Source: Coriobacteriia bacterium (GTDB taxonomy: Bacteria; Actinomycetota; Coriobacteriia; Anaerosomatales; SLCP01). From it: DNA of 46,845 nt. The notes under the pieces are model-generated. The model was not told where the DNA came from. It made no database searches and saw only the letters and a list, made by a program, of their open reading frames with translations. Position 1 is the first letter of the stretch. Each line of letters starts with the position of its first letter. The DNA lies in assembly GCA_035685585.1 (NCBI GenBank), contig DASSAH010000346.1:1-46845 (forward strand), in the 5' to 3' direction. The translations under genes and the position numbers were made by a program. Positions 488 through 27,451 of the stretch are shown piece by piece.

Positions 488-1954
488 CTACCTCCCTACC
501 TCGATCTTGTCCTTGACGTAGCGCCATGCGAACTGCGCCCACTTCCCGCGCTTGTACCCGACCGCCTGCGCCAGCGCGTCGACCACGCGCCGCCCGTCGT
601 CGCTGCCCGCGCGCGCCAGCTCGAACGCTTTCCCGAGCAGCGCTTTCTGCCGCTCCGCCGGCGTCATCGCTTGCGTGCGCGCGATAAACGCCGCGTGCGT
701 CGCCGCGTCGGGTATTCCCGCCTCGACGAGCTCGGCCTCGATCGTCTGCCACGTTTTCTGATCGCGCGGCGCCTGCCCCGCCAGATCGAATCCGCACGAC
801 GGGCAGCGTCGAGGCGTGCCCGGGAACACTCCGTAGCATTTTGGGCAGGTCGTGGTCGTCGGCGCCCGCTCGCCCTTCTCGCGCTTCTGCGAATCAAGCG
901 ACCAGGCGCGGTCCTCGAGCACGTGGCCGTGCAGGTAGTAGTTGCCGACGTGGTCGAGGATCACCGCGCGGTCCTTGCCGGGGAACGGGCGCAGCGCGCG
1001 GCCGACGATCTGGAGATAGAGCGCGAGGCTCATCGTGCGGCGCAGCAGGATCGCGCCGGCGAGCACCGGGACATCGACGCCCTCGTTTATCAGGTCACAG
1101 AACGTGACGACCTGCACGCTGCCGTCGCCGAGTCCTCCAATCGCCGCCTCCCGCTCCTCGCGCGGCATGTCGCCCCAAACGGTCCGGGCCCGGTAGCCGG
1201 CCGCGTCGAACACGGACGCCATGAGGCGCGCGTGCTCGATCGAGACGCACGAGACGATCACCGGCAGGCCGTCGAGGTGCTTGCGGTAGTGGCTAACGAC
1301 GTCGCCGACGATCTTGCGGCCGGACATGACGCGCTGCTGCTCGGCCGTGTCGAAGTCGCCCCGCTTGACGTGATACTCGGCCGTGACCTCCTCGGGCGGG
1401 CGGAAAATTACGGGCGGCGAAAGGTAGCCCTCGGCGACAAGCTGGGAGATCGACGGGCCGACGATCATCTCGGCGAACGTCTCGCCGAGGCCGCGGCCGT
1501 CAAGCCGCGCCGGCGTCGCGCTTACCCCGACGAGTGGCACCTCGCTCCAGTAGCGGATTACGCGGCCCCAGGAGTTGTCCTGCAGGCAGTGGTGCGCCTC
1601 GTCGCACACGATCAGGTCGGGCCGCTTGAGCGCATGCAGGCGGCGCACAATCGTCTGCACCATGCCCGTCTGTATCGTGTCGAGGGTCATCGGGCGGCCT
1701 GGCGCGATCTGACCGGACGTGACGCCGAGGCCGTGAAGCGCGCGGAGCGTCTGCTCGAGGATCTCGCGGCGGTGCACGAGGATGTAGACGCGGTTATGAC
1801 GGGCCGCGGCGCCCCGCGCGATGGTCGCATAGAGCACGGTTTTGCCCGAGCCGGTCGGCGCGACGTAGAGCACGGACGGCACGCGCCGGCGCAGCGCGTC
1901 GCGCAGCGCGTCGAGGCCGGCCTGCTGGTAGGGGCGGAGGGTCAGCGCGGGCAC
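488..1954 (-). CDS. Superfamily-2 DEAH-box DNA helicase with C-terminal zinc ribbon
   Basis: Walker A APTGSGKT, DEAH box VCDEAHH, motif III VSATP, C-terminal CPKC...CPSC. GTG start preceded by GGAGGGGA. Confidence 0.85.
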   Translation of the reverse strand: MPALTLRPYQQAGLDALRDALRRRVPSVLYVAPTGSGKTVLYATIARGAAARHNRVYILVHRREILEQTLRALHGLGVTSGQIAPGRPMTLDTIQTGMVQTIVRRLHALKRPDLIVCDEAHHCLQDNSWGRVIRYWSEVPLVGVSATPARLDGRGLGETFAEMIVGPSISQLVAEGYLSPPVIFRPPEEVTAEYHVKRGDFDTAEQQRVMSGRKIVGDVVSHYRKHLDGLPVIVSCVSIEHARLMASVFDAAGYRARTVWGDMPREEREAAIGGLGDGSVQVVTFCDLINEGVDVPVLAGAILLRRTMSLALYLQIVGRALRPFPGKDRAVILDHVGNYYLHGHVLEDRAWSLDSQKREKGERAPTTTTCPKCYGVFPGTPRRCPSCGFDLAGQAPRDQKTWQTIEAELVEAGIPDAATHAAFIARTQAMTPAERQKALLGKAFELARAGSDDGRRVVDALAQAVGYKRGKWAQFAWRYVKDKIEVGR

Positions 1955-1955
1955 G

Positions 1956-2108
1956 CTATTTCCCCTCCGCGTACAGCCCGTTGACCACGCGCATGACGTG
2001 CTCGATTTCCTTGACCGCGTCGTCCTTGCCGTTGCGCCTGGCGGAGTCGCGCCACTTGCGCAGCAGATCGCAGGCGCGCAGGATGTCGGCGGCGGTTATC
2101 GCAGCCAC
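1956..2108 (-). CDS. Small hypothetical protein (50 aa)
   Basis: GTG at 2108 is preceded by GGGAGGGGAG. The longer ORF 1956..2180 would overlap the upstream gene by 85 nt. Start choice is uncertain. Confidence 0.4.
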   Translation of the reverse strand: MAAITAADILRACDLLRKWRDSARRNGKDDAVKEIEHVMRVVNGLYAEGK

Positions 2109-3331
2109 GGCTCCCCTCCCACATACCGCCATGCCGCCGCGCTCGTGCCCGGCATGCGCTCTCGGATCACCTCGAAGCACCCGGCGTGCTCCGCCATCCA
2201 GTCGTGCTGAAACCGCAACGCGCGGTCTACGCCCGGGCGCTCGAAATACCAGAAGTCCATGAGCACGACGACGGTCTGCCCCGCGATCCAGTGCGGGCCG
2301 AACGTGCGCAGCGCGGGGAGAAACAGGTAGTTGCGCTTGCAGCAGTCGTCGACGTGCAGGGAGATCGGCGGGCCGGCGTAGCGAGCCTTGCGGATGTCGC
2401 CCTTGTGGAGCGTGACGAGCGCGCCGATCTCATGCAGCGTCTCGAACACGCGCCCGCTCGTGTCCTGCCCATCGCGCAGTCGAACTCCATGCGCAGCCGC
2501 TTTCGCGACTTCCCCCGCGCTCGCCTCGAACGCATCGTAGGCGTGCACGACTACGCTCCGCCCGCTGTGCCGCACCCCGAGCGCCATCTGCGCCGTGCCC
2601 GCGCCGAGCCAGCAGCCCAGCTCGACTATCGCGCTCCCGTCCGGGCAGGCGGCGGCCCACTCGCGCAGGTCGCGCCCGATCTCGCGCCCGCCCATGCTCG
2701 GAATCCTCCGCACGGCCTCCGGCACCATGTCGTCGTCAATCGCCCGATGGCGCACGTAGACCAGCTTGAGATAGCTGACCCGCTCCGGCCGCTCCCGCGC
2801 GTCGTCGACGGCCACGACTTCGCCGCCGCACTCGGCAATGAGCGCGAGCAACTCGGGGAGCGTCGCGCCGTAGGGGTCCGTCTCGCTCGACTGCTCGTGC
2901 TCGCTGCCCCACTCGATCACCAGCACGCCGAGCGGAGGTCGCAGGCTGCGCAGCCAATTCGAGACGGCGCGTCGCGGATCCATTGCATGATCGAGGCTGT
3001 TCGAGTAGACGAAATCGGCGACACCCGACCACTCTGGGCGCAGGTCGTGAAAATCCCACTGGATCGTCCGCGGGAACTGCGCAGCGGTCGGCGCGATCTC
3101 GGTGCCGAGCACCTCGCAGCCGGGGAGCAGCTCTGCGAACATAGCCTGCTCGAAGCCGTTGCGCGTGCCGTGACACAGCCCGAAGCGTGGGGCGGCGCCG
3201 ATGAGCTGTTGCACGCGGTCGGCGACGGCGTAGATGTTCGCGGCGCGCGCCCAGGTCGTGCCGATTTTCTCCGCGTTCGCGCGGTACTGCGCGGCCAGGT
3301 AGGCGTCGCGCGTCGGGTAGGTGTAGGTCAT
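2096..3331 (-). CDS. Two-domain SAM-dependent methyltransferase-like protein (N-terminal class I MTase fold plus C-terminal TylF/Methyltransf_24-like domain)
   Basis: N-terminal domain: GLCHGTRNGFEQ...VLGTEI...DFVYSNSLDH. C-terminal domain: IVELGCWLGAGT...VHAYDAFEAS...LHVDD...VVVLMDFWYFE, a paralogue of the 5500..6168 product. ATGA coupling at both ends. Confidence 0.7.
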   Translation of the reverse strand: MTYTYPTRDAYLAAQYRANAEKIGTTWARAANIYAVADRVQQLIGAAPRFGLCHGTRNGFEQAMFAELLPGCEVLGTEIAPTAAQFPRTIQWDFHDLRPEWSGVADFVYSNSLDHAMDPRRAVSNWLRSLRPPLGVLVIEWGSEHEQSSETDPYGATLPELLALIAECGGEVVAVDDARERPERVSYLKLVYVRHRAIDDDMVPEAVRRIPSMGGREIGRDLREWAAACPDGSAIVELGCWLGAGTAQMALGVRHSGRSVVVHAYDAFEASAGEVAKAAAHGVRLRDGQDTSGRVFETLHEIGALVTLHKGDIRKARYAGPPISLHVDDCCKRNYLFLPALRTFGPHWIAGQTVVVLMDFWYFERPGVDRALRFQHDWMAEHAGCFEVIRERMPGTSAAAWRYVGGEPWLR

Positions 3332-4788
3332 GCGTTTGCTCCTGCGAAAAGTGGTAGCTCGTCGTTGACGCGCCGCTCTGCCATCGCCGCGTATTCCGGT
3401 TTGAGCTCGATTCCCACGCCTCGCCGGTTCAGCTTCGCGGCCACGAGTAGCGTCGTGCCGGCGCCCGCGAACGGGTCAAGAACGGCGCAGGGGACGGGAT
3501 CGCCGTCGTGGGAGCAGGAGGGGCGGAAGCCGAGGGTGGTGCGCGTAGGCTCACGGTTGGGTACAAATCCGTCCCGCGTCATGTTCGCAGCGCGCTCCCC
3601 AAATGCACCGAGTCGCCCCTTGTTCGGTGCTGGCGCTCGCTCGGTGGGCGCATACGACTTCTCCACCACGCGCACCCAGGGCGCGCCGCACTCGGGGCAG
3701 CAGCCGCGCTCGCTGGTCCCGGCGCGGATGCAGCGCTCGGCGAGGGCCTCGGGGAACGTGGCAAAGTGGGCTTCGGGGAAGGGCTGCGTTGCGATGGTCC
3801 AGACGGAGCGGGCGTTGCGCGAACGAGGTGCTGTCCCGTTCTCCTCGGTGGCATCCCAGCGGTCGTTGAATCCCACGACGTGATGTGAATTGCCGGGCAT
3901 CTGTGCGGCGGACTCTCTCTGCTTGTCTGTGAAACGGCCGTTTCCTGCTCTCCCATGATCTACCGTGTCCCAGCCGGCCGGGACCTTCTTGCGCTTCCGG
4001 TTCTGCATGTGTCCGGTGTAGCCAACATCGGGGCGGGGGCCGAACGCGAGCAGATCCGGGCGCGTGGTTATTCCTGGCTCTTTGACCGCCTCCGAGTCGT
4101 AGAAGTACCGCGCCGACTTCGACAGCAGGAACACGTACTCATGCGCTTTTGTCGGCCGATCGGTGACGCTCTCCGGCATGGGGTTGGGCTTGTGCCAGAT
4201 GATGTCCGCGCGCAGATACCAGCCGTCGGCCTGCAGCGCGAGCGCGAGCCGCCAGGGGATGCCGCACAGGTCTTTTGGTTTCAGGCTTGCATCGGTAGTG
4301 ATTCCGTGCTTGGAACGCTCACCCTTCTCTCTGCGCTGCCCCTCCTTGCTCCAGTCGCCCATCGGCTGCGCGACAGTTCTCAGTGAGTTGTGCGAGAACA
4401 TGCTTGTAGCGTAGCTATCCCCCATGTTCACCCACACCGTGCCGTCGCTGCGCAGCACCCGGCGCACCTCGCGGAACACGGCGACCATCTTGTCGATGTA
4501 CTCCTCGGGCGTGCGCTCAAGGCCGAGTTGCTGGTCGATCCGGCGGGCGCCGCACTTGCGGCAGATCGAGGCGTCGACGCCCGGGCGCTGGCCTGTCGTG
4601 ATGGCGCCGGGGGCCTTCGTGTCCTCTACCTGCCCGCCTACGCTGTGCTTGCACTCAGGGTCTCCGCCATCCCATGTGCCAGTGCCGTAGTCGCGCAGGC
4701 CCCAGTAGGGCGGGCTCGTGACGACGCAGTGCACGCTCTCGTCGGGCATCGTGCGCAGGATGGTGAGGGCGTCGCCGACGTGGATCAT
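3328..4788 (-). CDS. DNA methyltransferase, beta-class N4/N6 family (SPPY type, probably N4-cytosine)
   Basis: Motif IV TSPPYW near the N-terminus and motif I LDPFAGAGTT near the C-terminus. Cys-rich inserts (CKH...CRKCG; CCPECG). ATGA overlaps on both sides. Confidence 0.85.
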   Translation of the reverse strand: MIHVGDALTILRTMPDESVHCVVTSPPYWGLRDYGTGTWDGGDPECKHSVGGQVEDTKAPGAITTGQRPGVDASICRKCGARRIDQQLGLERTPEEYIDKMVAVFREVRRVLRSDGTVWVNMGDSYATSMFSHNSLRTVAQPMGDWSKEGQRREKGERSKHGITTDASLKPKDLCGIPWRLALALQADGWYLRADIIWHKPNPMPESVTDRPTKAHEYVFLLSKSARYFYDSEAVKEPGITTRPDLLAFGPRPDVGYTGHMQNRKRKKVPAGWDTVDHGRAGNGRFTDKQRESAAQMPGNSHHVVGFNDRWDATEENGTAPRSRNARSVWTIATQPFPEAHFATFPEALAERCIRAGTSERGCCPECGAPWVRVVEKSYAPTERAPAPNKGRLGAFGERAANMTRDGFVPNREPTRTTLGFRPSCSHDGDPVPCAVLDPFAGAGTTLLVAAKLNRRGVGIELKPEYAAMAERRVNDELPLFAGANA

Positions 4789-5510
4789 GCCTCGTGCTCC
4801 GTGAGTTGCGGCTGCTCGTACTCTGTGCGCTCGAACAGGCGCGGGCGGTTAAGCCATGCCGCCTCGATGCGCTTGCACGCGATGTCGAAATACTTGGGCT
4901 CGATCTCGATACCGATGAAGCGGCGGCCGAGGTTGACGCACGCAACGCCCGTCATGCCGCTGCCCATGAAGGGGTCAAGGATGATTTGCGCGTCTGCAAC
5001 AAAACTGAGACACCACTCCATCACCGCAACGGGCTTTTGCGTCGCATGCACCCGCGCCTCACCGCGCTCAGAGTCGCGCAGCATACCGTTCCACATATGG
5101 GCAAGGAGGCGCGCAGGGCCATCAAGGTTCGTCCAAGCCATCTCGCAATCGGCGAAGTCATTGACCGTCGTCCCGCGCCTCTTATCCCATACAAGCCAGC
5201 GCGCGGACTTTGGCAGACGTGCGGCATAGTGATTGCCGCCCCATAGGATTGACGGCACGCCAAGCGCGATAATCGGCGCCGGGTCAAAGTCGGTCTCGTC
5301 GCCACGCACAATGTCCTTGCCGGTGAACCGCTTTTCGTACCGCGAGCCATCACGATCACGACGCCTGATTCCGCCTCCACCGCCGCCGGGCGAATACCCA
5401 ATTCCATACGGCGGGTCCGTGACCACGGCGTCCACCGGCCCCAGCGTCGGGAGCACTTCAAGGCAGTCACCGAGGTACAGCGTGCAGTCGCCGATCTGCT
5501 CAGTACGCAA
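4785..5510 (-). CDS. DNA N6-adenine methyltransferase, beta class (DPPY type)
   Basis: VTDPPYG, HATQKP, LDPFMGSGMTG. TTG start at 5510 preceded by GGGGAGGGGGAAG. The 110 upstream codons of ORF 4785..5840 are Arg/Ser-rich and overlap 5500..6168. Confidence 0.8.
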   Translation of the reverse strand: MRTEQIGDCTLYLGDCLEVLPTLGPVDAVVTDPPYGIGYSPGGGGGGIRRRDRDGSRYEKRFTGKDIVRGDETDFDPAPIIALGVPSILWGGNHYAARLPKSARWLVWDKRRGTTVNDFADCEMAWTNLDGPARLLAHMWNGMLRDSERGEARVHATQKPVAVMEWCLSFVADAQIILDPFMGSGMTGVACVNLGRRFIGIEIEPKYFDIACKRIEAAWLNRPRLFERTEYEQPQLTEHEA

Positions 5511-6168
5511 CGCTTCCCCCTCCCCACTCGAACACCGCCGCCATCCCGTCGCGCTCGACGAACCGGAACGCCCGCGGATTCCGCTCCACAAGACGCCGCT
5601 GGTAGTCGAACGCCTCGCCCGCCTTGCTCTCGTACCAGTAGAAATCCATGAGCACGAGCCGCGCGCCCGATGCGAGGTGCGGGCCGAAGGTGGCAAGTTT
5701 CGCGCGCGTGTAGCGCTCGTCGCAGCCGATGTCGTCGACGAGCAGGCCGATCGGGCCGCCGATATAGGCGGCGTCGAACAGGTCGCCTTTGTTCGCCAGG
5801 ATCGGGGCGCGCATGACCGTCCGCGCGTCCCACTGCGCACCGCCGAGGCCGCCGAGCACCGGGCGGAACGGCGCGAGGTTCGCGATAAATAGCGGCAGCA
5901 GGTCGTCGGGCAACTCCTGGCCGTGATACTGGCGCGCCTTGCCGCGCAGGTCGCAGATCGTCGCGTCCCAGGTGTCGTAGGCGTGGATCTCGCGGTCGGA
6001 ACCGAGAGCGAGGTAGGCCGTCGTGCTCCCGAGATACGGGCCGATGTCGACGATCGCCTGGCCCGGAGGGACAGCGCCCGCGAGGCGGATCAGCGTGTCG
6101 GCGATGCGGCGCCCGCCATGGCCGAGGTCGTGGATTGCGTCGGCGAGAGCGCGGAGGTTTGGTGTCAT
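5500..6168 (-). CDS. TylF/Methyltransf_24-like SAM-dependent methyltransferase-like protein
   Basis: IVDIGPYLGSTT...IHAYDTWDAT...LLVDDIGCDE...RLVLMDFYWYE. Paralogous to the C-terminal domain of 2096..3331. Confidence 0.65.
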   Translation of the reverse strand: MTPNLRALADAIHDLGHGGRRIADTLIRLAGAVPPGQAIVDIGPYLGSTTAYLALGSDREIHAYDTWDATICDLRGKARQYHGQELPDDLLPLFIANLAPFRPVLGGLGGAQWDARTVMRAPILANKGDLFDAAYIGGPIGLLVDDIGCDERYTRAKLATFGPHLASGARLVLMDFYWYESKAGEAFDYQRRLVERNPRAFRFVERDGMAAVFEWGGGSVAY

Positions 6169-6446
6169 GCGGACCTCACGGCTGCGATAGTCAGGCGACG
6201 CGCAAAGTCGAGATTGAATCCAGCCGCGCTAGTCGTCGACGGCCAGTCACACCAGCGCTCCGAGCCCCACATGTGCCACTTGCCGCGGCGTAGCGTCGTA
6301 ATCCGCAGGTGTCGTCGCGGGCCAGTCCAGAATCCAGCGCCGACCTTCCAGCGAAACGCGCGCAGGACTATCGCGCGCGAAGCCGCCGGCCTCTCGAAAG
6401 CTCCGCGCCGCTCGAATCGATTCCGCTCTATCGAAAATCCGCTCAC
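6165..6446 (-). CDS. Hypothetical protein (93 aa)
   Basis: GTG at 6446 overlaps the upstream stop as GTGA and is preceded by GAGGTGAAGG. Its stop overlaps the next start as ATGA. No recognisable family. Confidence 0.5.
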   Translation of the reverse strand: MSGFSIERNRFERRGAFERPAASRAIVLRAFRWKVGAGFWTGPRRHLRITTLRRGKWHMWGSERWCDWPSTTSAAGFNLDFARRLTIAAVRSA

Positions 6447-7012
6447 GCCTTCACCTCGTAAAACCACGTCCATTCCTCGCCGCGCTCGACGCGGTAGGCC
6501 CAGGGCCCGAGAAACGCCGTCACCGCAGCCTGTACCGCGCCCTGGTCCGGCCGCCCGTAGTCGTGCCCGCAGAGCAGACCGCCCGGCCGCACCTTCGGCG
6601 CCCACGCGCGCAGGTCACGCGTCACGCCATCGTAGGAGTGGTCGCCGTCGAGGAAAGCGAAATCGAGCGAGCCGTCGGCCACGCAGCCGGCGGCCGTTAC
6701 GCTGTCCATGTGCAGGATGCAGCGCCGCTCGACCCATGGCGCCGTGCGCCGCTCGGCCTCCATGCGCGCGAGGTCGAACGTCCGCTGCGGGTGCCTCGCC
6801 ATCTGCGCCCCGCTGGCGTAGTAGCTGTCCTCCGGCGGCGGCGCGAGCCAGCGGTCGACCATGTAGAGCCGAAGCCGGGGCCGGGCCGCGAGCAGGCGCT
6901 CCGAGAGGCGGCCCTGCCAGACGCCGACCTCGGCGCCGACGAGCGCGCGGTCTGCGGGCAGGCGGGACAGGATCGCGTCCCAGCGGTGGGCGCGGGGCTC
7001 AGAGCGTGGCAT
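6443..7012 (-). CDS. Class I SAM-dependent methyltransferase (Methyltransf_24-like)
   Basis: VGAEVGVWQGRLS...LYMVDRW...LDFAFLDGDHSYDGV...GGLLCGHDY. ATG at 7012 preceded by GGAGGGAG. Confidence 0.7.
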   Translation of the reverse strand: MPRSEPRAHRWDAILSRLPADRALVGAEVGVWQGRLSERLLAARPRLRLYMVDRWLAPPPEDSYYASGAQMARHPQRTFDLARMEAERRTAPWVERRCILHMDSVTAAGCVADGSLDFAFLDGDHSYDGVTRDLRAWAPKVRPGGLLCGHDYGRPDQGAVQAAVTAFLGPWAYRVERGEEWTWFYEVKA

Positions 7013-7769
7013 CGCGGTACTCCCTCCAGATCCGCGCCGCCTTGCGGAGCTCGGGCGGCAGATCCTCGACCGGCGTCGAGCCAAGCACGGCCCATCGCAG
7101 CGTGCCCTTGACGTGCAACATGCGGCACTCGGGGCCGATGTCCGCCCAGTCGTCCTGGCAGGCGTTCCACTCGCGGCACGGCAGCGCGATCACGCGGGCG
7201 CCGATCTGTGGTAGCTCTTTTTTCACGAGATACCAGAAGCTCGCCTGATTCATCCCGCATGTCGCGCGCCGCCAGGGCTCGTGGAAAACGGGGTCGCGAT
7301 ACATCTGCAGGTCGACCTCGCGCCAGCGGCGGAAAAACGCTTTCGCCGCGGCGGTCGGGCGCACAAAGATGACGCCGCCGTTGATAGGCAGGCGCGGATT
7401 GCTGGTCTGGGTGTAGGCGATGTCCCACGGCTGGTCGATCGGCGTTTCGTAGCCTCCCCACTCGGCGAGGTGGAACGCATCCTCGACGCTCTGCAAGCAC
7501 AGCATGTCGCAGTCGGATAGGATCAGCGGCTCGCCCGCTGCGCGTACCGCCTTCTCCCACTCCCGCAGCTTCGCGTTATTGCTCGTGTACGCCGTGCGCT
7601 TGCCGGGGATTCCGGCGGGCGGGCGCATCTTGATTTCCTCGAACGTGACGCCGGGCATGTTGCGGGCGCACGAGGCGCGGAACACGCGGGAGAGCTCCGC
7701 GTAGGCTCCGGCGTGCGCGCTCGGGGCGCGGCCGTCGTCGTAGTCAAACTCGCAGGTGATGAGTTTCAC
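6999..7769 (-). CDS. GT-A fold nucleotide-sugar glycosyltransferase (GT8-like)
   Basis: DxD-like LILSDCDM, NGGVIFV, GMNQASF and C..WN motifs typical of GT8-type enzymes. GTG start overlaps the upstream stop (GTGA at 7766-7769). Confidence 0.6.
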   Translation of the reverse strand: MKLITCEFDYDDGRAPSAHAGAYAELSRVFRASCARNMPGVTFEEIKMRPPAGIPGKRTAYTSNNAKLREWEKAVRAAGEPLILSDCDMLCLQSVEDAFHLAEWGGYETPIDQPWDIAYTQTSNPRLPINGGVIFVRPTAAAKAFFRRWREVDLQMYRDPVFHEPWRRATCGMNQASFWYLVKKELPQIGARVIALPCREWNACQDDWADIGPECRMLHVKGTLRWAVLGSTPVEDLPPELRKAARIWREYRDATL

Positions 7770-7948
7770 TCGATGACCTCGTAGAGCCGCACCATGTCCT
7801 CCATGCGCACGTCGCACTTGACGAGCTTCAACAGGCATGGCACACAGGTTGCCCGGAGCCCGAGCGTGATTCCGTCCGCTTGATCCTTGAGCTTCGCGCC
7901 GACGATCATCAATGTCCGCTCGCATCCGCAATTTGAACACCGCGTCAT
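7766..7948 (-). CDS. Small zinc-ribbon protein (60 aa)
   Basis: CSNCGC...CVPC cysteine pairs. ATGA/GTGA coupling at both ends. Confidence 0.6.
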   Translation of the reverse strand: MTRCSNCGCERTLMIVGAKLKDQADGITLGLRATCVPCLLKLVKCDVRMEDMVRLYEVIE

Positions 7949-8373
7949 TCTCCTACCTCCACCGGGCTCCCGCCCTTGTCAAACTCGAACGCCCCGCCCT
8001 TCTCGCGCACGACCGTCGAAAACCCGCCCGCCTTGCGCACCTGGGCGAGAAAGTTGATCTGCTCTTTCGTCGTCGTCACGTTCTCTGTTTTCAGTTCACA
8101 AGCACAAAACTGCGCGATCTGTGAGCCGATCATTTCCGCTGTCACCCGCACGCTGCGCCAGCCGATCAGGTCTGACGAGCCCTCGCACAGACCGAACCGG
8201 ATACGGCGCCCGGCAATCTCGTAGATCACCGCCGCGCCCGACCGCGTGCTCGACGGGTAGCTGCGAAGCTCGCGGCCGACGAACCCGACGCCGACGGAGT
8301 TGCGGAAAAGCCGCCAGCCTTGGCGCGTGGACCATAGGAGAAAGCGCTTGAGCAGCGCGGATTCGTGGTTCAT
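7945..8373 (-). CDS. VRR-NUC domain (PD-(D/E)xK) nuclease
   Basis: GSSDLIGW...FCACELKTE...TTKEQINFL matches the VRR-NUC D...E.K...Q pattern. Confidence 0.75.
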   Translation of the reverse strand: MNHESALLKRFLLWSTRQGWRLFRNSVGVGFVGRELRSYPSSTRSGAAVIYEIAGRRIRFGLCEGSSDLIGWRSVRVTAEMIGSQIAQFCACELKTENVTTTKEQINFLAQVRKAGGFSTVVREKGGAFEFDKGGSPVEVGE

Positions 8374-9725
8374 GCGGCCCCCACGGTGCTGAGCGTCAGC
8401 GCACGCGCGAGCCCGGGCGGGACCGCGTTGCCGATCTGACGCACTTGGTCGGTTTTCGTCCCGGCGAAACGGTGCTCGACCGGGAACCCCTGCGCCGCGG
8501 CGAGCTCGTGTGGCTGCAGCATGCGGAACGTGATGTCCAGCGTGTAGGGCTCCCCGTCGACGAGGGCGAAGCGGTCGCGAGTCGTCACGGTGTCGAGCGG
8601 GTCAGCGATCGCGAGCGGCCCGCTGGTGCCGTAGTAGGGGACAATGAACGGGCGCACGAGGCCGTGCCCGTTGCGGGCGCGGATCGCCGGCACTGGATCG
8701 CTCACTCGCCGCGGGGCCCCGGGCGCGTCCTGGTGCAGAATGAACGGCTCGACGAGTCCGAACTTGCCTCCCCCACTTGCGGGGATCGTCGGGCAGGGCT
8801 CGCCGATCGCGTGCGTCCGCGGCTCCTGGCCGTCGCGCTCGCCGTAGTGAGGCACGAGGAAGGACTGCACAAGCCCGACCTCGCCGCGGTGCGCCGCCGT
8901 GACCGTAGCCAGCGGGTCGTCTACCGACTGAACGCGCCCGCCGTGGGTGAGCATGAGCAGGAACGGTTCGGCCCACGCGCCCCAGTACCGGCGGATCCCG
9001 GCCTCGATGCGGCGCAGGGTAGCGGGCGCGAGCGGGCGCTTGCGGTCAAAGATGCTCTGCCCGCGGATGCTCCAGTCGATGATCTCGCCGGCCGAGCGCC
9101 ACGGCTGCGCCCCGAACAGTCCCGGCTCCCGGGCGTGTGTTGGTTCCGGCCAGAGGATGCGGGCCCCGCCACGGGCCGCCTGCAGGAACAGCCGCCGGCG
9201 CGTCGTCGGGTCGCCGTAGTCGGCGGCGCAGAGCACCTGCCACTCGACAGTGTAGCCCATGGCCCGCAGCGCCGCGACGAACGCCTGGAACGTGGCGCCC
9301 TTCTTGGACGCCAGCGGCTTTCCGTCGGCCCCGAGCGGCCCCCACGAGACGAACTCGGGCACGTTCTCGACGATCACCCGGCGCACGTAGAGCTCGCTGA
9401 GCCACTTGAGGATGAGCCAGGCGCTCGCCCGGCTCTGGTCGCTCCGCGGTCGGCCGCCCCGGGCGATGCTATGATGGGTGCACTCTGGTGAGGCCCAGAG
9501 CAGGTCGACGCGGTCCCGGGGCGCGAACACGTCGAGCGGGTTCAGCGTGGCGAGGTCCTGGCAGTAGGACCTCGCGTCGGGGAAGTTGAGCTTGTGCGTC
9601 TCGATGGCGACCAGCCAGTGGTTGACGGCCGCAAGGTCGAGCCGGAGGCCGGCGGAGGCCGCGGCCTGCACGATGCCGCGCGTCTCGCCCCCGCCGCCGC
9701 AGAACAGGTCCGCTATTCGCGTCAC
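8370..9725 (-). CDS. DNA (cytosine-5) methyltransferase
   Basis: Motif I DLFCGGGG, motif IV ASPECTHHS, motif VI ENV, motif VIII TTRRRLF, motif X QIGNAVPP. GTG at 9725 overlaps the primase stop (GTGA), with GGAGGGGG upstream. The 157 upstream codons of ORF 8370..10196 overlap the primase gene. Confidence 0.9.
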   Translation of the reverse strand: MTRIADLFCGGGGETRGIVQAAASAGLRLDLAAVNHWLVAIETHKLNFPDARSYCQDLATLNPLDVFAPRDRVDLLWASPECTHHSIARGGRPRSDQSRASAWLILKWLSELYVRRVIVENVPEFVSWGPLGADGKPLASKKGATFQAFVAALRAMGYTVEWQVLCAADYGDPTTRRRLFLQAARGGARILWPEPTHAREPGLFGAQPWRSAGEIIDWSIRGQSIFDRKRPLAPATLRRIEAGIRRYWGAWAEPFLLMLTHGGRVQSVDDPLATVTAAHRGEVGLVQSFLVPHYGERDGQEPRTHAIGEPCPTIPASGGGKFGLVEPFILHQDAPGAPRRVSDPVPAIRARNGHGLVRPFIVPYYGTSGPLAIADPLDTVTTRDRFALVDGEPYTLDITFRMLQPHELAAAQGFPVEHRFAGTKTDQVRQIGNAVPPGLARALTLSTVGAA

Positions 9726-12265
9726 TCTTCCCCCTCCAGGTACGCTGCCCGAAACTCCGTCCAGCGCAGCAGGCGCGCGCGACGACGGCCCATGAGAAAC
9801 GGCACGATCTTGCCCTCCCCGGCGTTGACGCACAGCTTGTTGCGCCGTAGCTGCGCGTCGTAGCCCATCGCATACGGCGTGTCGGCGAGCACCGTCTGCA
9901 GCCGCTCGCTCTGAGTCGCGACGGCCAGGTGGTCCCTGTAGAACGTGAGCCCGAGCCGCGAGAGCGCGTCGCCGGCCCTGTCGTCCTGCCCGGTCGACGC
10001 GCGCTTGAGCAGTTCCGCGATCGTGCGCGTCGTGTTGTCGTCGAGCCGCACCTGCGCGCCAATGATGTGCTCGATCACGCGGTCCTCGTCCTCGAGCGTC
10101 GCGCCCGTGTCGCCCTCGCTGAGCTGGGCGACGAGCGGAGCCTGCCACGCCATGCCGGCGTCGCTGCAAATCGGCTCGCTCGACTGCACGGCCCACGCCG
10201 CGGCGAGCAGGGGCGCGTACACGTCGCCCTTGCGCTGGTCGCCGACGACGCTCGCGATCCCCTCGCGCAGATACGCGATGTCAGCGAGCACGCGCGGGAG
10301 CGCTCGGAAAATGCGGCGGCGAAACCTTCCGGAGTCGTGCCCGAGCAACGCCCGGTACAACTCCGCCGACCTCCGTATTTTCTCGCGCTCGCCCTCCGCG
10401 GTGCTCCGTTGCATTTCGCAGATCACCCAGCGGCTCGCCTGCGCCGCGTCCGCCTCGGCGACGTTCACGGCAGCCACGCAAAAGCATGAGCGGATCAGGT
10501 ATTGCACAACCCCGTCACCCCGCGCCTGCGTCACGTAGCCGGAGCCGTCGCCGGCGGAGTTGCGCACCAAGCTCAAGAGCCCGCTGATGTTTTCCTTTTC
10601 GCGCTTGTTTCGCGCCTCGGCCTCGTCGAGCACGACCGGGCGAGCGTCGCGGTTCAACGTGCGGCGGATCCCGGCTTGCGTGTCCATGCCGGCGCCTGTG
10701 TGTGCGAACGGGCCCACGACCTCGCGGACGTACTTGAGCAGGCTGCTCTTGCCGACGCCCTTCGGGCCGGTGATCCAGATATTCGGGCGCCAGGAGAGCA
10801 GGCCGCCAAACGGCGCGATGAGCGCCCAGCCGAGCGCGGAGGCCGCCTGCACGGGCGCGCGGAACGCCTGCAGCATAAACAGGCGTCCGAGCGCCTTGCC
10901 GTCCTCGTCGCTGTTCCCGTCGCCCGACATGTCGCCGAATTCGACGCGACCGCTGCTCGCGTAGTACGCCTCGCCCTCGAAGGCATCGTAGGGGATGCGC
11001 GTTCCGTCGCCGAGCACGATCTGTCGCCCGTCGTTTATCACGATTCGCTCGCGGTCAAGCCAGACGCCGACGCCCCGCAGCACCTCGAGGCGGAACGCGC
11101 CGGCCGCAGTGGACTCGGCTATGACGTGGTCCTGCGCGGGCGCGACCTTGATGCTCCCCTGATCGCCGACGAAATTGTTTTGAGACCACCAGGCCAGCGG
11201 CGCAAGCTCGCCAAGCTGGGAAGCTGAGAAGCGGCCCAGCGGGATCTCGAACGGAACGCGCCGGGGGCACAAAAGGAAATGGTGCTCCGCGGCGTCGTGT
11301 CCGAGGCAGATAAACGGGCGCGGCTCGCCGGAGGCAGATGTCTCGGCGGGCGGGGGCGGCAGGTGGCTGTTGATGAAGTCGACGAGGTCGATGCCCTCGG
11401 CCGCGGCGTCTGCGATGTCCCAGCCAGCCGGCTTGTCTGTCGGCGAGGTGAGCACGACAGCCTGCGGGAGCCGCTGCTTGATCGCGCGCGCGGCCTTGGC
11501 ACCCGGCTCGTCGGCGTCCGGCCAGATCGTCACGTTGCGGCCGGCCAGCGGGGACCAGTCGGCCTTTGTGACCGCTGAGCTGCCCGAGGCCCACGTAACG
11601 ACGACGTAGCCCGGCACCGGAACGTCCCCGCACTTCTCCCCTTCCACGACGAGCACGGGCAGGTCCGGCTGCGCCGCGAGGCGGTCGAGCCCGTAGAGCG
11701 GGCGGTCGCTCTCGTAAGCCTGCCCGTTGTGCCACTTGCCGTCCGTGCCGTAGTACCAGGGGAGGATCGCCTTGCCGTGCCCCTCGCGCTCGTACCTGAC
11801 GACGCAAAACAGCACGCGCCCCTCGGCGTCGACGTAGCGCCAGCCCTTGACCGGATGCCCGTGCCGCTCGACGTACCACGCATCGGCGGCGGCGGCGTTT
11901 AGCGATTTCAGGCGATCGGCGGGCACCGGGAGCACCGGCTCGACCTTGGGTTTGCGCGTGCGTTCCCGGCGTGGGGAAACCGCCGAGGGCGCGGAATCTG
12001 CGCCGTCCGGCACGAGGCGGGCGACGGCGTCGGCGACGGTCACGCCCTCGCGCTCGGCGTAGGCGTCGAGCACAGAGCCGCGGAATCCGTCGTCGCCAAA
12101 ATCCTTGACCGCTGGCCCGCCGTCGACCATGTGACAGCTTGGCGTGTGATCGTCCGGCCTGCGGCTCCACCAGTAGTCGGCGCCGCGGAACTCGCCGCCC
12201 GGGAAGTAGCGATCGGGGCTGGCGGCGAGGATGCTTTTTGCGCGCTCGAATCGCGAATCCGGCAC
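9722..12265 (-). CDS. DNA primase/helicase (Toprim domain plus P-loop NTPase, DUF927-like)
   Basis: Toprim-like VLVVEGEKCGD and IWPDADEPG, Walker A ITGPKGVGKSSL, Walker B VVLDEAE. 847 aa. Confidence 0.8.
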   Translation of the reverse strand: MPDSRFERAKSILAASPDRYFPGGEFRGADYWWSRRPDDHTPSCHMVDGGPAVKDFGDDGFRGSVLDAYAEREGVTVADAVARLVPDGADSAPSAVSPRRERTRKPKVEPVLPVPADRLKSLNAAAADAWYVERHGHPVKGWRYVDAEGRVLFCVVRYEREGHGKAILPWYYGTDGKWHNGQAYESDRPLYGLDRLAAQPDLPVLVVEGEKCGDVPVPGYVVVTWASGSSAVTKADWSPLAGRNVTIWPDADEPGAKAARAIKQRLPQAVVLTSPTDKPAGWDIADAAAEGIDLVDFINSHLPPPPAETSASGEPRPFICLGHDAAEHHFLLCPRRVPFEIPLGRFSASQLGELAPLAWWSQNNFVGDQGSIKVAPAQDHVIAESTAAGAFRLEVLRGVGVWLDRERIVINDGRQIVLGDGTRIPYDAFEGEAYYASSGRVEFGDMSGDGNSDEDGKALGRLFMLQAFRAPVQAASALGWALIAPFGGLLSWRPNIWITGPKGVGKSSLLKYVREVVGPFAHTGAGMDTQAGIRRTLNRDARPVVLDEAEARNKREKENISGLLSLVRNSAGDGSGYVTQARGDGVVQYLIRSCFCVAAVNVAEADAAQASRWVICEMQRSTAEGEREKIRRSAELYRALLGHDSGRFRRRIFRALPRVLADIAYLREGIASVVGDQRKGDVYAPLLAAAWAVQSSEPICSDAGMAWQAPLVAQLSEGDTGATLEDEDRVIEHIIGAQVRLDDNTTRTIAELLKRASTGQDDRAGDALSRLGLTFYRDHLAVATQSERLQTVLADTPYAMGYDAQLRRNKLCVNAGEGKIVPFLMGRRRARLLRWTEFRAAYLEGEE

Positions 12266-12280
12266 GTCGATCTGCGCCTA

Positions 12281-13177
12281 TTACTTTGAACTCATCATGG
12301 GCGGCAGAATGACGCGGGTCTTTTTTTGCCCCTTGTTCAGAATGGAAAGTAGCGCGTGCCCGCAGGCTACGTGGTCTGCTCGTGTTGAACCGATGAGCAC
12401 GAATTTGTTGATCTGATGCCGAAGTCCCTCGATCCCGACCGATATCATGTTGTCCAGCGGGAAGCTACGGAAGTCCACGGAAGGATTCATCTGCACGACG
12501 TAGAAGAGTCCCTTCAGTTCCTTGGACGCGATCGGTGTCCCCTGCGCCACCTCTGCCAGGAGTCCGAACGTCTGATCGGCGGCGGCCCTGTTCCTCTGGA
12601 TCATCCAGTAGATTGTTTTGATCGCCGTTGTTTGAAGGCCACGCGGGCTCCCCGGGGCGAACTCGTAGCCGTGCTTCTTGACCAAATCGTCGGCGAGCAT
12701 AGCGATCTCGACTCCCGCGACGCGCGCTCCCTTGTGGTCCTCGTATGCAGAGCAGCGAATGCGAGAAGTGTTGATCTTCCAGAATGCGAGAGCCTCTTCC
12801 TTGGTAGCCCCCATCTGGTAAACCATGCAAGGCAGCTTGTCGATGTCGTCGCGGAGATTGGCGGCCCTCAGCCTGCGCCCGCCCTCAACGACAAAGTAGC
12901 CGTCGACGGTGTCCGCGACATGAAGGGTCCCGAATGCCGGCCACCAGAACTCGCGCGCGATTTCGAGCGTCTTTCCCTTTGCTCTGATTTCGCGCTGGTA
13001 ATTAAGGTCGAGCATCAGATCCTTTTTCGGAATCATCTTGAAGACGCCGGCCTCTTCGAGTTTCTTCCAGTGATAGCGTGCAACCTTGGAGATTCCATTC
13101 CTCCCGTTGACGCCCTCGTTTGATCCGACCGCCCTCAATAGGCTGTCTTCCTTCAATTCCTCAAGAACTCGCTCCAT
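12281..13177 (-). CDS. ParB/sulfiredoxin-like N-terminal domain protein
   Basis: LDLNYQRE...YFVVEGGRRLRAA (ParB GxxR-type motif). ATG at 13177 preceded by GGGGGAA. Visibly lower GC than flanking genes. Confidence 0.6.
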   Translation of the reverse strand: MERVLEELKEDSLLRAVGSNEGVNGRNGISKVARYHWKKLEEAGVFKMIPKKDLMLDLNYQREIRAKGKTLEIAREFWWPAFGTLHVADTVDGYFVVEGGRRLRAANLRDDIDKLPCMVYQMGATKEEALAFWKINTSRIRCSAYEDHKGARVAGVEIAMLADDLVKKHGYEFAPGSPRGLQTTAIKTIYWMIQRNRAAADQTFGLLAEVAQGTPIASKELKGLFYVVQMNPSVDFRSFPLDNMISVGIEGLRHQINKFVLIGSTRADHVACGHALLSILNKGQKKTRVILPPMMSSK

Positions 13178-13185
13178 GTTTCCCC

Positions 13186-13959
13186 CTACAGGCTGTCGCC
13201 CCACGCGGTAAGTTTCTCGACCAGTTCAGAGACGTATCGCTTGATGCTTTTCTTCCTGATCGACTTGAGCCGCCTTGTGATGGTGACGAACATTTCGTCA
13301 ACCACTGTTCCCTCAAGCTCTCTCAGTTCATGGCTAACCTCCTTGCGTCCTACACTGTGGGCGCTCTCCGCCTTCTCTCCTGATAGCACCGCCCTCGCTT
13401 CCTCTGGATTTGTGGCGACAACCGCAGCGGCCTCGTGAACTGCCCTGCGCGTCGGTCCATCTCCGCGAACGATGTGCTGCTCGATCTCTGGTTCTACCGC
13501 CTTCACGATTTCCACGTCCCGCGCGAACGCGGCGTCGCGCTCGATGGTGCGTGAAGTCACGCCGTGTTCAACGGCGAGTCGTTTCGACGTTGGGCCGTCC
13601 ACTACGCCACTTTGTCGGAGTGAGTTCTGCTCGCCCGGCGCCTTCTTCAGCCTGTTGTACCGCCGCCCACGGATCAGGGCTGCTTGGTCGGGCGTCAGGT
13701 TGCGCCGGCCGAGCTGGTGCGCGTCGATCCAATCCTCCGCATCTTCGCGCGAGCGAAGCGATACATGGGCCACTTGAAACTCGACTCCGAGCCGCTGGCA
13801 AATCTCATAGCGGTTGTGGCCGTCGAGAAGGGTATCCTCCTCAAGCCACACGATGAGTGGATCGAGGCATCCGTCTGCCTTGATGCTCTGTTCCAACAGG
13901 CCGCGCTCTTCGTCGCGAATTGGCGGGATCAACGAACGGAAGCCCTCGTCTATCTTCAA
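13186..13959 (-). CDS. ParB-like nuclease domain protein
   Basis: SLIPPIRDEE...DPLIVW...LLDGHNRYEIC...RRNLT. TTG start preceded by GAGGAGGA. Lower GC. Confidence 0.75.
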   Translation of the reverse strand: MKIDEGFRSLIPPIRDEERGLLEQSIKADGCLDPLIVWLEEDTLLDGHNRYEICQRLGVEFQVAHVSLRSREDAEDWIDAHQLGRRNLTPDQAALIRGRRYNRLKKAPGEQNSLRQSGVVDGPTSKRLAVEHGVTSRTIERDAAFARDVEIVKAVEPEIEQHIVRGDGPTRRAVHEAAAVVATNPEEARAVLSGEKAESAHSVGRKEVSHELRELEGTVVDEMFVTITRRLKSIRKKSIKRYVSELVEKLTAWGDSL

Positions 13960-17222: not shown

Positions 17223-17606
17223 ATGGCAGATTCGGATTACAAGAGCTTTTCTGTGAGGCTCCCGCTCTCGCTGCTCGACAAGGTCGGCAGGATCGCCGCG
17301 GGGCGCGAGTGGAGCAACAATAAGGTCATCATCAAGGCTATCGAGCGCGGCCTCCCGATCGTGGCCGAAGCTGATTTGAGTGGCCCGACGCCCCAGGGAC
17401 CACCGCCCGCGCCGGCGCGTCACCGGTCCCGAGCGCCCCGCATCGAGGGCGAGCAGCCGAGCCGCGGCTACAGCGGCACGCTGCCCTTTAAGTCGACTTC
17501 TGATTATACATTATACGAAGCTGGCGCCGACCCCTCCGCACAGATTGGAGAAATTGACCGCCTTATGGAAGAAATTGACCGTTGCGCCGACAGGGACGCC
17601 GCGTGA
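17223..17606 (+). CDS. Ribbon-helix-helix regulator with low-complexity C-terminal tail
   Basis: YKSFSVRLPLSLLDKVGRIAAGREWSNNKVIIKAIERGLPIV aligns residue-for-residue with the 16944..17114 product. SD GGAGGG. Confidence 0.7.
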   Translation: MADSDYKSFSVRLPLSLLDKVGRIAAGREWSNNKVIIKAIERGLPIVAEADLSGPTPQGPPPAPARHRSRAPRIEGEQPSRGYSGTLPFKSTSDYTLYEAGADPSAQIGEIDRLMEEIDRCADRDAA

Positions 17607-17634
17607 CAATGCCCTCCGAAATGGAGGCCCCGCC

Positions 17635-17931
17635 ATGCTCACGATTCACCCGGATATCGGTCTGCACCAACGACCGCGGCCACGGCTCGACAGTTCGCCG
17701 ATGCCGTTCTGCCACTGTACGACGCTCACAGCGATCACGTACCAGCCCGATCTACTGCCGATGCTGCGCTGTCTCGACTGCCCGCGCGTCTACGTCGCCG
17801 TGCCGCTCGACGACTGGAGGGCATTCATGCGGCGGGCGTACATCGACCATGTCAACCAGGTCCACCGCGCCCACGCGGCAGTCCGCCACTTTTGGACGAC
17901 TGCGGCAGAGCCGCATGCTAAACTGTCATAG
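17635..17931 (+). CDS. Hypothetical Cys/His-containing protein (98 aa)
   Basis: ATG at 17635 preceded by GGAGG. FCHC...CLDC. The upstream part of ORF 17380..17931 overlaps the RHH gene. Confidence 0.5.
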   Translation: MLTIHPDIGLHQRPRPRLDSSPMPFCHCTTLTAITYQPDLLPMLRCLDCPRVYVAVPLDDWRAFMRRAYIDHVNQVHRAHAAVRHFWTTAAEPHAKLS

Positions 17932-17941
17932 GAGGCCACGT

Positions 17942-25754: not shown

Positions 25755-26020
25755 ACTGGGAGCTTGTGACCGTCGGCGTTTTCGTCGTCGTCGGCCTGAT
25801 CGAGTACGTCAAGGGATTCTTTCCGCAGGCGAGCGCGAGCACCTGGCGCGTGGCGATCGTGCCCGCGTCGTTTCTCGCCGCCGCGGTCGGGCAGATCGCT
25901 ACTCTGCAGCCGGTCTGGCCCGGCGTGCTCCTGCACGGACTCGTGATCCTCTCGGCCTCGCAACTCGGCTACCAGGTCGTCGTCGAGGCGGTCAAGCGCA
26001 GGCTCGGGGGCGTGGCGTGA
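25751..26020 (+). CDS. Holin-like membrane protein (89 aa, three predicted TM helices)
   Basis: MNWELVTVGVFVVVGLIEYVK..., two further hydrophobic helices, and a charged C-terminus EAVKRRLGG. Confidence 0.55.
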   Translation: MNWELVTVGVFVVVGLIEYVKGFFPQASASTWRVAIVPASFLAAAVGQIATLQPVWPGVLLHGLVILSASQLGYQVVVEAVKRRLGGVA

Positions 26021-27049: not shown

Positions 27050-27451
27050 ATGCCTATCATCAACAGCTTTCTCGACAACCGGCCGATCGTGCTGCGCGGG
27101 GACGCCTACGAAACACGCATGCTGACCGCGGCCCAGGGCGACCTCGTCATCGGCACCGTGCTCGGCGTCGTGACCGCGACCGGCAACCTGCGCGTCTGCG
27201 GCATCGGCAACGGCGACGGCTCGCAGGTCGCGCGCATGGTGCTCGCGCAGGACGCGCCGAACGCGGCCGGGACGCAGAACGTGCGCGTGCTCATCGCGGG
27301 CATGGTCGACGGCGATCAGCTCACGTTCTCCGGCGTGGAGACCCAGTTCTCCGTCGTGGCCGCCACCAACCTGACCCACCGCGACAGCCTCCGGGCCAAC
27401 GGGATCACCGCCATGCACGGCGACGATCTGCTCGCCTGGGACAACACCTAA
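27050..27451 (+). CDS. Head decoration protein (lambda gpD-like)
   Basis: 133 aa, immediately upstream of a gpE-like capsid gene. Gly/Val-rich beta character. Confidence 0.7.
   Translation: MPIINSFLDNRPIVLRGDAYETRMLTAAQGDLVIGTVLGVVTATGNLRVCGIGNGDGSQVARMVLAQDAPNAAGTQNVRVLIAGMVDGDQLTFSGVETQFSVVAATNLTHRDSLRANGITAMHGDDLLAWDNT

Follow-up and report, generated by a model that had tools for sequence, protein, structure and literature searches.

The stretch of DNA analysed here (the window: 46,845 nucleotides, contig DASSAH010000346.1, registered as "Coriobacteriia bacterium") is a phage genome of 46.7 kb that was assembled circularly. Positions 1-141 are identical to positions 46705-46845, and this overlap of the first and last 141 bp of the contig indicates a complete circular assembly. 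We are concerned with an island on the minus strand, at 2096-9725 (7630 of 46845 bases, 16%), in which genes for three DNA methyltransferases (MTases) stand together with genes for a glycosyltransferase (GT) and for further proteins of methyltransferase fold. An earlier sequence-only reading had described it as a translationally coupled island of about 7.6 kb with seven methyltransferase-fold domains and a GT-A glycosyltransferase, and had proposed that it might serve DNA hypermodification. The description holds with regard to Pfam matches, BLASTP paralogy, junction overlaps and size. The proposed function is another matter, and most of what follows bears on it.

The island belongs to one tightly packed operon, which occupies 488-12265 of the minus strand, starts with a primase-helicase gene and ends with a gene for a DEAD-type helicase. 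In order of transcription, it encodes the primase-helicase, a C5-cytosine MTase, a VRR-NUC nuclease, a 60-aa protein, the GT, a Methyltransf_24 protein, a 93-aa open reading frame (ORF), a 222-aa protein, two DNA MTases with DPPY and SPPY motifs, respectively, a 411-aa protein, a 50-aa ORF and the helicase. All ten junctions from the primase-helicase to the 411-aa gene are formed either by ATGA or GTGA overlaps (ATGA between DPPY and SPPY) or by overlaps of 11-14 nt. Junctions of the operon are preceded by a GGAGG-like site, and GC content by codon position is coding-like for every gene but the 93-aa ORF. Families were assigned by scans with Pfam, PHROG and NCBIfam profiles; about 50 ORFs of the complete genome were covered by Pfam and/or PHROGs. 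The sequence-only reading had placed the island between the primase-helicase and VRR-NUC genes on one side and the helicase on the other. The outer flanks are as stated, but the VRR-NUC gene belongs to the interval itself, where it separates the C5 MTase from the putative zinc ribbon of 60 aa.

The core of what we call the glycan cassette is the GT gene (6999-7769, minus strand, 256 aa). Its product is a GT-A glycosyltransferase of a GT8/GT34/GT77-like clade (PF03407, 30.5 bits against a cutoff of 22). Residues invariant in 25 homologues comprise the DxD motif (D86, D88), N130 and G132, H163 and H219, the last one within an H-x-K-G motif whose K221 is nearly invariant as well. H219 is a candidate equivalent of His212 of glycogenin and thereby of the C-terminal His that serves as metal ligand in GT8 enzymes (HxxGxxKPW type). 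An AlphaFold2 model built on the alignment of the 25 homologues reached a mean predicted local distance difference test (pLDDT) score of 92.4. Foldseek comparison of this model with PDB, a check proposed in the sequence-only reading, returned glycogenin-1 and -2, the A64R domain of chlorovirus PBCV-1, which glycosylates the major capsid protein of that virus (template modelling score, TM, 0.69), the catalytic domain of UGGT, GlyE and Skp1 alpha-galactosyltransferase. Structures of GT8 and GT34 were matched with E about 1e-7, the first domain of A64R (A64R-D1) was the second-best structural match, and neither TarP nor T4 beta-GT occurred among the top 50 PDB matches. At the level of sequence the signal is faint: a profile search of PDB sequences gave Skp1 GalT with E 0.026, and single-sequence searches of PDB with the GT, 222-aa and 411-aa proteins returned no meaningful match, the hits being to chordin and to a de novo protein. 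In a comparison with predicted viral structures, its neighbours proved to be GTs that have not been characterised, from uncultured phages, cyanophages and giant viruses; orthologues of A064R are among them. The modelled fold places the enzyme in the retaining, GT8/GT34-like branch of GT-A.

The family to which this GT belongs is essentially restricted to uncultured phages. It was found in 77 loci of IMG/VR, in contrast to 6 loci in 185,579 species genomes of cells, and none of the 50,697 phage records of GenBank matched it in tblastn at E 1e-3. In 1.84 billion representatives, it comprises 572 clusters at 50% identity (E <= 1e-30). Some members carry tandem GT domains, two or three per polypeptide (P0146, 822 aa; P0153, 991 aa; P0147, 494 aa). 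Further, a Vicinamibacteria metagenome-assembled genome contains two near-identical prophage-like copies with TerL and a match to the GT family, at about 3.05 Mb and about 5.04 Mb of its 5.1-Mb chromosome (contig CBDFGD010000002.1; L091 and L092 in our numbering of related loci). A search of GenBank phages for near-identical DNA matched only a 206-bp MTase fragment of Bordetella phage PHB04.

Three other genes complete the cassette. The first of them overlaps the GT gene by 14 nt and encodes a Methyltransf_24 protein dependent on S-adenosylmethionine (SAM), a putative sugar O-methyltransferase (6443-7012, minus strand, 189 aa; PF13578, E 6.7e-15, 56.3 bits against a cutoff of 26.3). Its only match among PDB sequences is MeT1 of M. 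hassiacum (6g7d, E 0.003), and its viral matches are confined to cyanophages, one Thermobifida phage and one Lokiarchaeota virus. The second is the gene of the 222-aa protein (5500-6168, minus strand; PHROG 2675, E 5e-5). The sequence-only reading had called this protein TylF-like, for which Pfam gives no support; it is instead a Methyltransf_24-like paralogue of the C-terminal domain of the 411-aa protein (BLASTP, 35% identity over 170 aa, E 4e-18). It has no Pfam match of its own, so its link to Methyltransf_24 runs through this paralogy alone. Residues G47, D65, D145 and D146 are invariant in its family, and a joint profile of the family and the C-domain put MeT1 on top of PDB sequences, at a non-significant score. 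The third gene encodes the 411-aa protein (2096-3331, minus strand), with Methyltransf_11 at aa 55-132 (E 3.8e-4) and Methyltransf_24 at aa 236-329 (E 3.3e-6; PF13578, 28.4 bits against the cutoff of 26.3). Its AlphaFold2 model (pLDDT 91) contains two class-I Rossmann methyltransferase folds, as the two-domain description of the earlier reading had implied. With the 222-aa protein recognised as a paralogue of the C-domain, the island holds seven methyltransferase-fold domains.

In Foldseek, the best single-domain matches of the 411-aa model were MeT1 of M. hassiacum (TM 0.71), SpnH and TcaB9, and no DNA methyltransferase occurred among its top 50 structural matches. MeT1 is the 1-O-methyltransferase of methylmannose polysaccharide, SpnH is the spinosyn rhamnosyl 4'-O-methyltransferase and TcaB9 is a sugar C-methyltransferase. 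With MeT1 (6G7D) and SpnH (4CE0), which stand for the Methyltransf_24/TylF-MycF clan, the island proteins share the class-I fold, motif I (ExGxxxG), an acidic motif II and DD or DxDH at beta-4. The C-terminal domain superposes on these two with TM of about 0.64-0.71, yet with only 16-20% identity. The cassette methyltransferases belong to the Methyltransf_24 clan, but have no match to the Pfam model of TylF (PF05711), and the 222-aa protein lies below Pfam detection. Conserved positions are E237, G239, G243, D266 and D328 in the C-domain (each conserved in at least 84%) and HGxRxG, E78 and D93 in the N-domain. Judged from these models, from fusions with the GT and from homologues in polysaccharide clusters, the cassette methyltransferases putatively methylate sugar hydroxyls. 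Homologues of the Methyltransf_24 protein are labelled "DNA methyltransferase" in RefSeq (NC_047713.1, 29162-29665, and NC_047712.1; Synechococcus phage ACG-2014f) and in PHROG 2675. This label is probably a propagated misannotation, as fold and context indicate sugar O-methyltransferases.

The company kept by the GT in other genomes is informative. ORFs were called in all fetched loci and labelled with domain hidden Markov models; partner counts refer to 66 loci, counts of head genes to 58 non-duplicate ones. Methyltransf_24 is the commonest partner and occurs near the GT in 36 of 66 loci, the 222-aa/C-domain type in 14 and the N-domain type in 5. The GT, Methyltransf_24, 222-aa and 411-aa genes form a cassette that recurs in about 80 contigs of uncultured phages without DNA methylases, usually in the head-assembly module. 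In 28 of 58 loci, a gene recognised as a head gene is found at most two genes away from it, compared to 15% for other genes of the same loci. For example, a 48-kb phage (L084/L085) has the order TerL, portal, UDP-glucose dehydrogenase, GT, two small ORFs, 222-aa-like protein, two-domain methyltransferase, small ORF, Methyltransf_24, small ORF, head morphogenesis, capsid. These genes share a single strand with overlapping stops and starts, its two-domain methyltransferase is 57% identical to the 411-aa protein, and its DNA methylases (Dam, MT-A70) are situated several kb upstream of the cassette. In L001, the GT, a GT2 enzyme and Methyltransf_24 are placed between a Mu-gpT-like capsid gene and an SU10 adaptor. 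Many IMG/VR loci follow the pattern TerL, portal, head morphogenesis, capsid, decoration, cassette, connector and tail genes, where the cassette contains at least one GT, MT_23, Methyltransf_24, a TupA ATP-grasp protein, UDP-glucose dehydrogenase and adenosine 5'-phosphosulfate (APS) kinase. A second group of loci encodes a GT fusion protein of about 520 aa, with the portal gene on one side and a fused capsid-protease gene on the other. Among 128 unlabelled neighbour representatives surveyed with Pfam, families of capsid, portal, terminase, Clp protease and decoration proteins prevailed; further methyltransferases, a TOD1 GT and phosphoenolpyruvate (PEP) mutase were also present.

Two kinds of fusion proteins, GT with N-domain (L038) and GT with C-domain (L025), indicate that the GT acts in a single pathway with methyltransferases of both types. 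Taking conserved neighbours, fusions and nearest structures together, we consider it very likely that the GT and the non-DNA methyltransferases constitute a unit for sugar transfer and sugar methylation that is independent of the DNA methylases; sugar transfer and sugar methylation had also been part of the sequence-only reading. The relatives also encode tailoring enzymes (L004-L006, at 12103-12729 in L004; L013, 8472-9326; L064, 12991-13755; L024, 7656-8489), namely Sulfotransfer_2, APS kinase/cytidylyltransferase, UDP-glucose dehydrogenase, TupA-like ATP-grasp proteins and one PEP mutase. These imply sulfated, uronic-acid, amino-acid-substituted or phosphonate-bearing glycans that differ from phage to phage.

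What would the sugar be attached to? Possibly to nothing large. A glycogenin-like GT might prime itself or use a small molecule, and the methyltransferases would then give a soluble polymethylated saccharide or glycoside, like the mycobacterial methylmannose polysaccharide (MMP) and methylglucose lipopolysaccharide (MGLP), with a metabolic or anti-defence role. Self-glucosylating glycogenin is indeed the top structural match of the GT, MeT1 of methylmannose-polysaccharide synthesis is the best methyltransferase match, and the ratio of one GT to four methyltransferase domains suggests heavy methylation. These similarities, however, are at the level of fold families only (TM 0.5-0.7, 12-20% identity), phages provide no precedent, and recurrent placement among portal, capsid and decoration genes is left unexplained. 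We regard a soluble product as improbable.

DNA is the second candidate acceptor, and here the three DNA MTases come into play. The C5-cytosine enzyme (8370-9725, minus strand, 451 aa; PF00145, E 3.5e-26; TIGR00675; PHROG 116, E 1e-75) has its motif DLFCGGGG right at a GTG start, which overlaps the primase-helicase stop in a GTGA junction. The two N6_N4 enzymes are SPPY (3328-4788, minus strand, 486 aa; PF01555, E 5e-45; PHROG 67, E 1e-70) and DPPY (4785-5510, minus strand, 241 aa; PF01555, E 3.2e-21; PHROG 67, E 7e-49), the latter starting with a TTG situated 11 nt within the preceding gene. All three look like ordinary orphan DNA methylases outside the glycan cassette, in agreement with the earlier view of them. 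According to the hypermodification proposal, the C5 MTase or another enzyme would make a precursor base, the GT would glycosylate it and the methyltransferases would methylate the DNA-linked sugar, with protection from restriction as a result. The setting is suggestive: the genes of GT and C5 MTase are three genes apart, in a replication operon that also includes VRR-NUC and helicase and has two ParB-like genes nearby. In DNA sugar-hypermodification clusters (C5-MT/5mYOX/GT; T4 alpha/beta-GT), too, a GT is found close to a C5 MTase and to nuclease, helicase and ParB-like genes. Published 5mYOX/GT clusters are accompanied by C5 and N6 MTases, endonucleases, ParB and O-methyltransferases, and PF13578 and PF08774 are among their profiles (bioRxiv 10.1101/2025.08.14.668559). 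Such clusters contain a GT8-like, A64R-like subclass of GTs (GT14I, GT43I; bioRxiv 10.1101/2023.12.21.572611), and GTs of this kind extend 5-hydroxymethylcytosine (5hmC) glycans in known systems. The phage also has the deoxynucleoside monophosphate (dNMP) kinase noted earlier (41573-42130), several of its ORFs are unannotated, and the cassette lies here within an early operon.

There are two important demands of phage DNA glycosylation. Firstly, it needs a hydroxymethyl-pyrimidine, which comes either from a ThyS-like hydroxymethylase or from the joint action of a C5 MTase and a TET/JBP dioxygenase; secondly, it needs a primary GT, which is either a JGT/TarP-like GT-A or a T4 beta-GT-like GT-B enzyme (bioRxiv 10.1101/2023.12.21.572611; bioRxiv 10.1101/2025.08.14.668559). 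In published systems, the GT8/A64R-like class is confined to the role of secondary GT, which lengthens a glycan that 5hmC already bears (bioRxiv 10.1101/2023.12.21.572611). As already remarked in the sequence-only reading for hydroxymethylase and thymidylate-synthase homologues, none of the about 50 scanned ORFs is a TET/JBP, 5mYOX, ThyS-type or other precursor-forming enzyme, and the sole GT stands outside both the JGT/TarP and the T4 beta-GT primary classes. Two ORFs at 12281-13959 that we considered as dioxygenase candidates were rejected as ParB-like owing to their DGHNRY motif. Moreover, the methyltransferase folds match enzymes acting on sugars and small molecules and not DNA enzymes. 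In most relatives the cassette resides in head modules, usually without DNA-modification genes, and neither TET_JBP nor thymidylate-synthase families appear among the 25 families listed for the 128 neighbour representatives.

The closest contextual relative (L004-L006) is instructive in this respect. Its GT is 55%, its helicase 75% and its VRR-NUC 54% identical to those of the phage, and the order in L004 is primase-helicase, 114-aa protein, VRR-NUC, 73-aa protein, GT, 68-aa protein, Methyltransf_24, 154-aa protein, MT_23, GT2-like protein, another uncharacterised protein, Sulfotransfer_2, 59-aa protein, N6_N4 MTase, helicase. No C5 MTase is encoded in the L004 locus, at the equivalent position or elsewhere. 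The adjacency of C5 MTase and GT, on which the idea of DNA hypermodification relied, is therefore not conserved: L004 keeps the GT cassette and lacks the C5 enzyme. Because the backbone is kept while its contents differ, we read the stretch from VRR-NUC to helicase as an accessory-gene hotspot of this lineage, in which a variable glycan cassette sits beside orphan DNA methylases. On balance, hypermodification of DNA by the island is distinctly unlikely. A special version of it would be a poly-O-methylated sugar written onto DNA with no hydroxymethylase of TET/JBP or ThyS type involved; the starting base might be provided, for example, by a host enzyme or by a phage enzyme not recognised as such. 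This we hold to be highly improbable. If it were true, such a hydroxymethylase-independent sugar would be a new chemistry of DNA hypermodification; we know of no case of sugar methylation on DNA so far.

The third candidate acceptor is the envelope of the host. The GT and methyltransferases might modify undecaprenyl-linked intermediates of O-antigen, exopolysaccharide or teichoic acid, leading to superinfection exclusion or to reduced trapping of progeny. Modification of wall teichoic acid by prophage-encoded TarP sets an example, and lipopolysaccharide core transferases WaaJ and WaaO are GT8 enzymes. Standalone homologues of the N-domain are common, and one of them (L086) is encoded in a bacterium within a cluster for surface polysaccharide, which also contains a Wzx flippase, GT4 transferases and a sulfotransferase. 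Further, homologous sugar O-methyltransferases of Asgard viruses were interpreted in a study of these viruses as acting on virion glycans or on the host surface. Yet the genes are coupled within operons of the lytic cycle (replication here, head assembly elsewhere) and do not resemble independently expressed morons of lysogenic conversion. Family scans revealed no flippase, polymerase or Gtr-type membrane component, no cassette protein has a transmembrane segment, and the GT family is nearly absent from cells. Remodelling of the envelope is thus rather unlikely.

We suggest instead that virion proteins are the acceptor. In our estimation, the chances are about even that the cassette builds an O-methylated glycan on a non-DNA acceptor of this kind, and comparative evidence favours this option, which the sequence-only reading had listed as an alternative. 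Three observations single out virion proteins as the likeliest acceptor: the recurrent embedding of the cassette among portal, capsid and decoration genes, the variation of tailoring enzymes between close relatives, and the precedents in mycobacteriophages and in PBCV-1. A possible course of events is as follows. Two unrelated gene sets would have accumulated in one hotspot of the replication operon. The first set, the three orphan DNA methyltransferases (C5, SPPY and DPPY), would methylate phage DNA as ordinary protection against restriction. The second one, a mobile cassette of four genes, would provide a soluble, Mn-dependent, GT8-like GT-A enzyme, which might move one or more sugars from a nucleotide sugar to the non-DNA acceptor. 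Four class-I SAM domains (Methyltransf_24, the 222-aa protein and two domains of the 411-aa protein) would then O-methylate different hydroxyls of the transferred sugar. With a head or decoration protein as the most likely acceptor, the virion might finally be covered by a coat of methylated glycans. Gene content, folds, conservation of motifs and of the cassette, fusions and the head-module setting in relatives are observations; the sugar-methylating chemistry and the acceptor are inferences.

Several points weigh against this proposal. The position in head modules bears on the acceptor through guilt by association, and both here and in L004 the cassette is found in an early or replication operon, beside DNA enzymes. 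Clusters for DNA hypermodification have themselves been described near structural genes (Pyle et al., bioRxiv 10.1101/2023.12.21.572611), and the same work reports GT8-like and A64R-like GT-A enzymes as secondary GTs on 5hmC glycans. No Ser/Thr-rich extensions, which would be candidate sites of O-glycosylation, were seen in capsid, decoration, sheath, tube and fibre proteins of the phage. Further, none of the cultured phages in the GenBank records carries the GT. We set aside charge as an indicator of DNA binding: cassette proteins of the phage are acidic to neutral (isoelectric point, pI, 5.7-7.8) while its DNA enzymes are basic (8.7-9.7), but the GT family is basic overall (median pI 9.1), which makes the argument weak.

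To our knowledge, virion glycosylation by phage-encoded enzymes has been demonstrated so far in mycobacteriophages only, where it blunts recognition by antibodies. Freeman and colleagues reportedly described it in 2023, with Che8 gp110, Corndog gp38 and their neighbours. In mycobacteriophages, phage GTs encoded beside an O-methyltransferase glycosylate capsid and tail tube (PMC11600133, PMC12363180). The cassette resembles that system in the clustering of GT with O-methyltransferase and in its possible location outside the structural module. It differs in that its GT has no detectable sequence homology to the mycobacteriophage enzymes (including Che8 gp110 and Corndog gp38), in its one GT with four methyltransferase domains, and in the probably diderm host. 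The second precedent comes from PBCV-1, where A064R (GT-GT-MT) and A061L methylate the glycan of the major capsid protein (PMC9614988). A DxD GT-A domain and class-I SAM methyltransferases, fused or adjacent, are common to both cases; the PBCV-1 pair O-methylates the terminal sugar of the capsid glycan, and the GT-methyltransferase fusions among cassette relatives parallel the architecture of A064R. Sequence identity between A64R and the GT is about 12%, and PBCV-1 is a eukaryotic giant virus that builds an N-linked nonasaccharide with several GTs, unlike a tailed phage with a single one. The system thus probably works like those of mycobacteriophages and chloroviruses and is not a sequence-level member of either.

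The cassette combines a PF03407-type GT with as many as four domains of sugar methyltransferases; it is specific to uncultured phages and different from the known virion-glycosylation cassette. If it decorates capsids, then virions coated with glycans would be a common feature of phages in the environment, probable phages of diderm hosts among them, with consequences for particle stability, adsorption, recognition by immune and defence systems, and phage engineering.

The remaining genes of the operon can be described briefly. The flanks are formed by the primase-helicase (9722-12265, minus strand), whose Toprim and P-loop motifs were read from the translation and which has a syntenic 844-aa gene in L004, and by the DEAD/ResIII superfamily-2 helicase (488-1954, minus strand), the one 75% identical to its L004 counterpart, in which PF00270, PF04851 and PF00271 were matched. 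The VRR-NUC nuclease (7945-8373, minus strand, 142 aa) matches PHROG 93 endonuclease with E 8e-10 and PF08774 with E 1.6e-4, its 22.1 bits being just under the cutoff of 23.8. The Cys-rich 60-aa protein (7766-7948, minus strand) is a putative zinc ribbon, as its CxxCxC ... CxxC pattern suggests. Its gene is coding-like (0.82 GC at third codon positions, GC3), as the earlier reading had assumed; it has no match in Pfam, PHROG or NCBIfam and no homologue in related loci.

The 93-aa ORF (6165-6446, minus strand), which that reading had also taken for a protein, is of doubtful coding status. It is joined to its neighbours by a GTGA and an ATGA overlap, one at each end. The predicted product is very basic (pI 12) and rich in Arg and Trp, and GC content by codon position is 0.59/0.65/0.71, compared to about 0.7/0.5/0.85 in neighbouring genes. 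The enclosing ORF (6165-6605) has no family match, and no homologue was found in related loci. The 93-aa ORF may encode a small protein that evolves fast, or else be a spacer. The 50-aa ORF (1956-2108, minus strand), absent from the sequence-only reading, bridges the 411-aa and helicase genes: it starts with a GTG that overlaps the upstream TAA, and its end adjoins the helicase start. It has no family match; the enclosing ORF (1956-2180) is coding-like, with GC3 of 0.81. None of the 93-aa, 60-aa and 50-aa ORFs has homologues among cassette-adjacent small ORFs of related loci, where no family of small ORFs beside the GT, as might be expected of a conserved partner or acceptor, occurs in more than 4 loci.

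Elsewhere in the genome, which has a GC content of 68%, a lambda-like head module comprises genes for protease (26017-27048), decoration protein (27050-27451) and major capsid protein (27468-28544). The tail is contractile, judging by the sheath (29792-31285) and baseplate genes, and RecE/RecT-like genes lie at 43816-46295. Two small ORFs, 40111-40446 and 40603-40929, carry lipoprotein-type signal peptides, and the first of them encodes a strongly Pro-rich, o-spanin-like lipoprotein (PPVVEPEPEPVPMPAP). Relatives of sheath and capsid are all found in phages of Gram-negative hosts. With regard to these relatives and to the o-spanin-like lipoprotein, the NCBI label "Coriobacteriia bacterium" resembles a binning artefact, and the host is probably diderm.

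The two adjacent ParB-like nuclease-domain ORFs (12281-13204 and 13186-13959), with DGHNRY and GGRRLRAA motifs and undetected by Pfam, occupy a stretch of lower GC content (59-61%) immediately upstream of the primase-helicase. Another segment of lower GC content, between regulatory genes and terminase, harbors a 510-aa ORF without a family match (17582-19114). An internal Met in this ORF precedes a lipoprotein signal that includes a lipobox (MYRIGSLIAFCTILVLFAAC), and the ORF may represent a moron encoding a surface lipoprotein.

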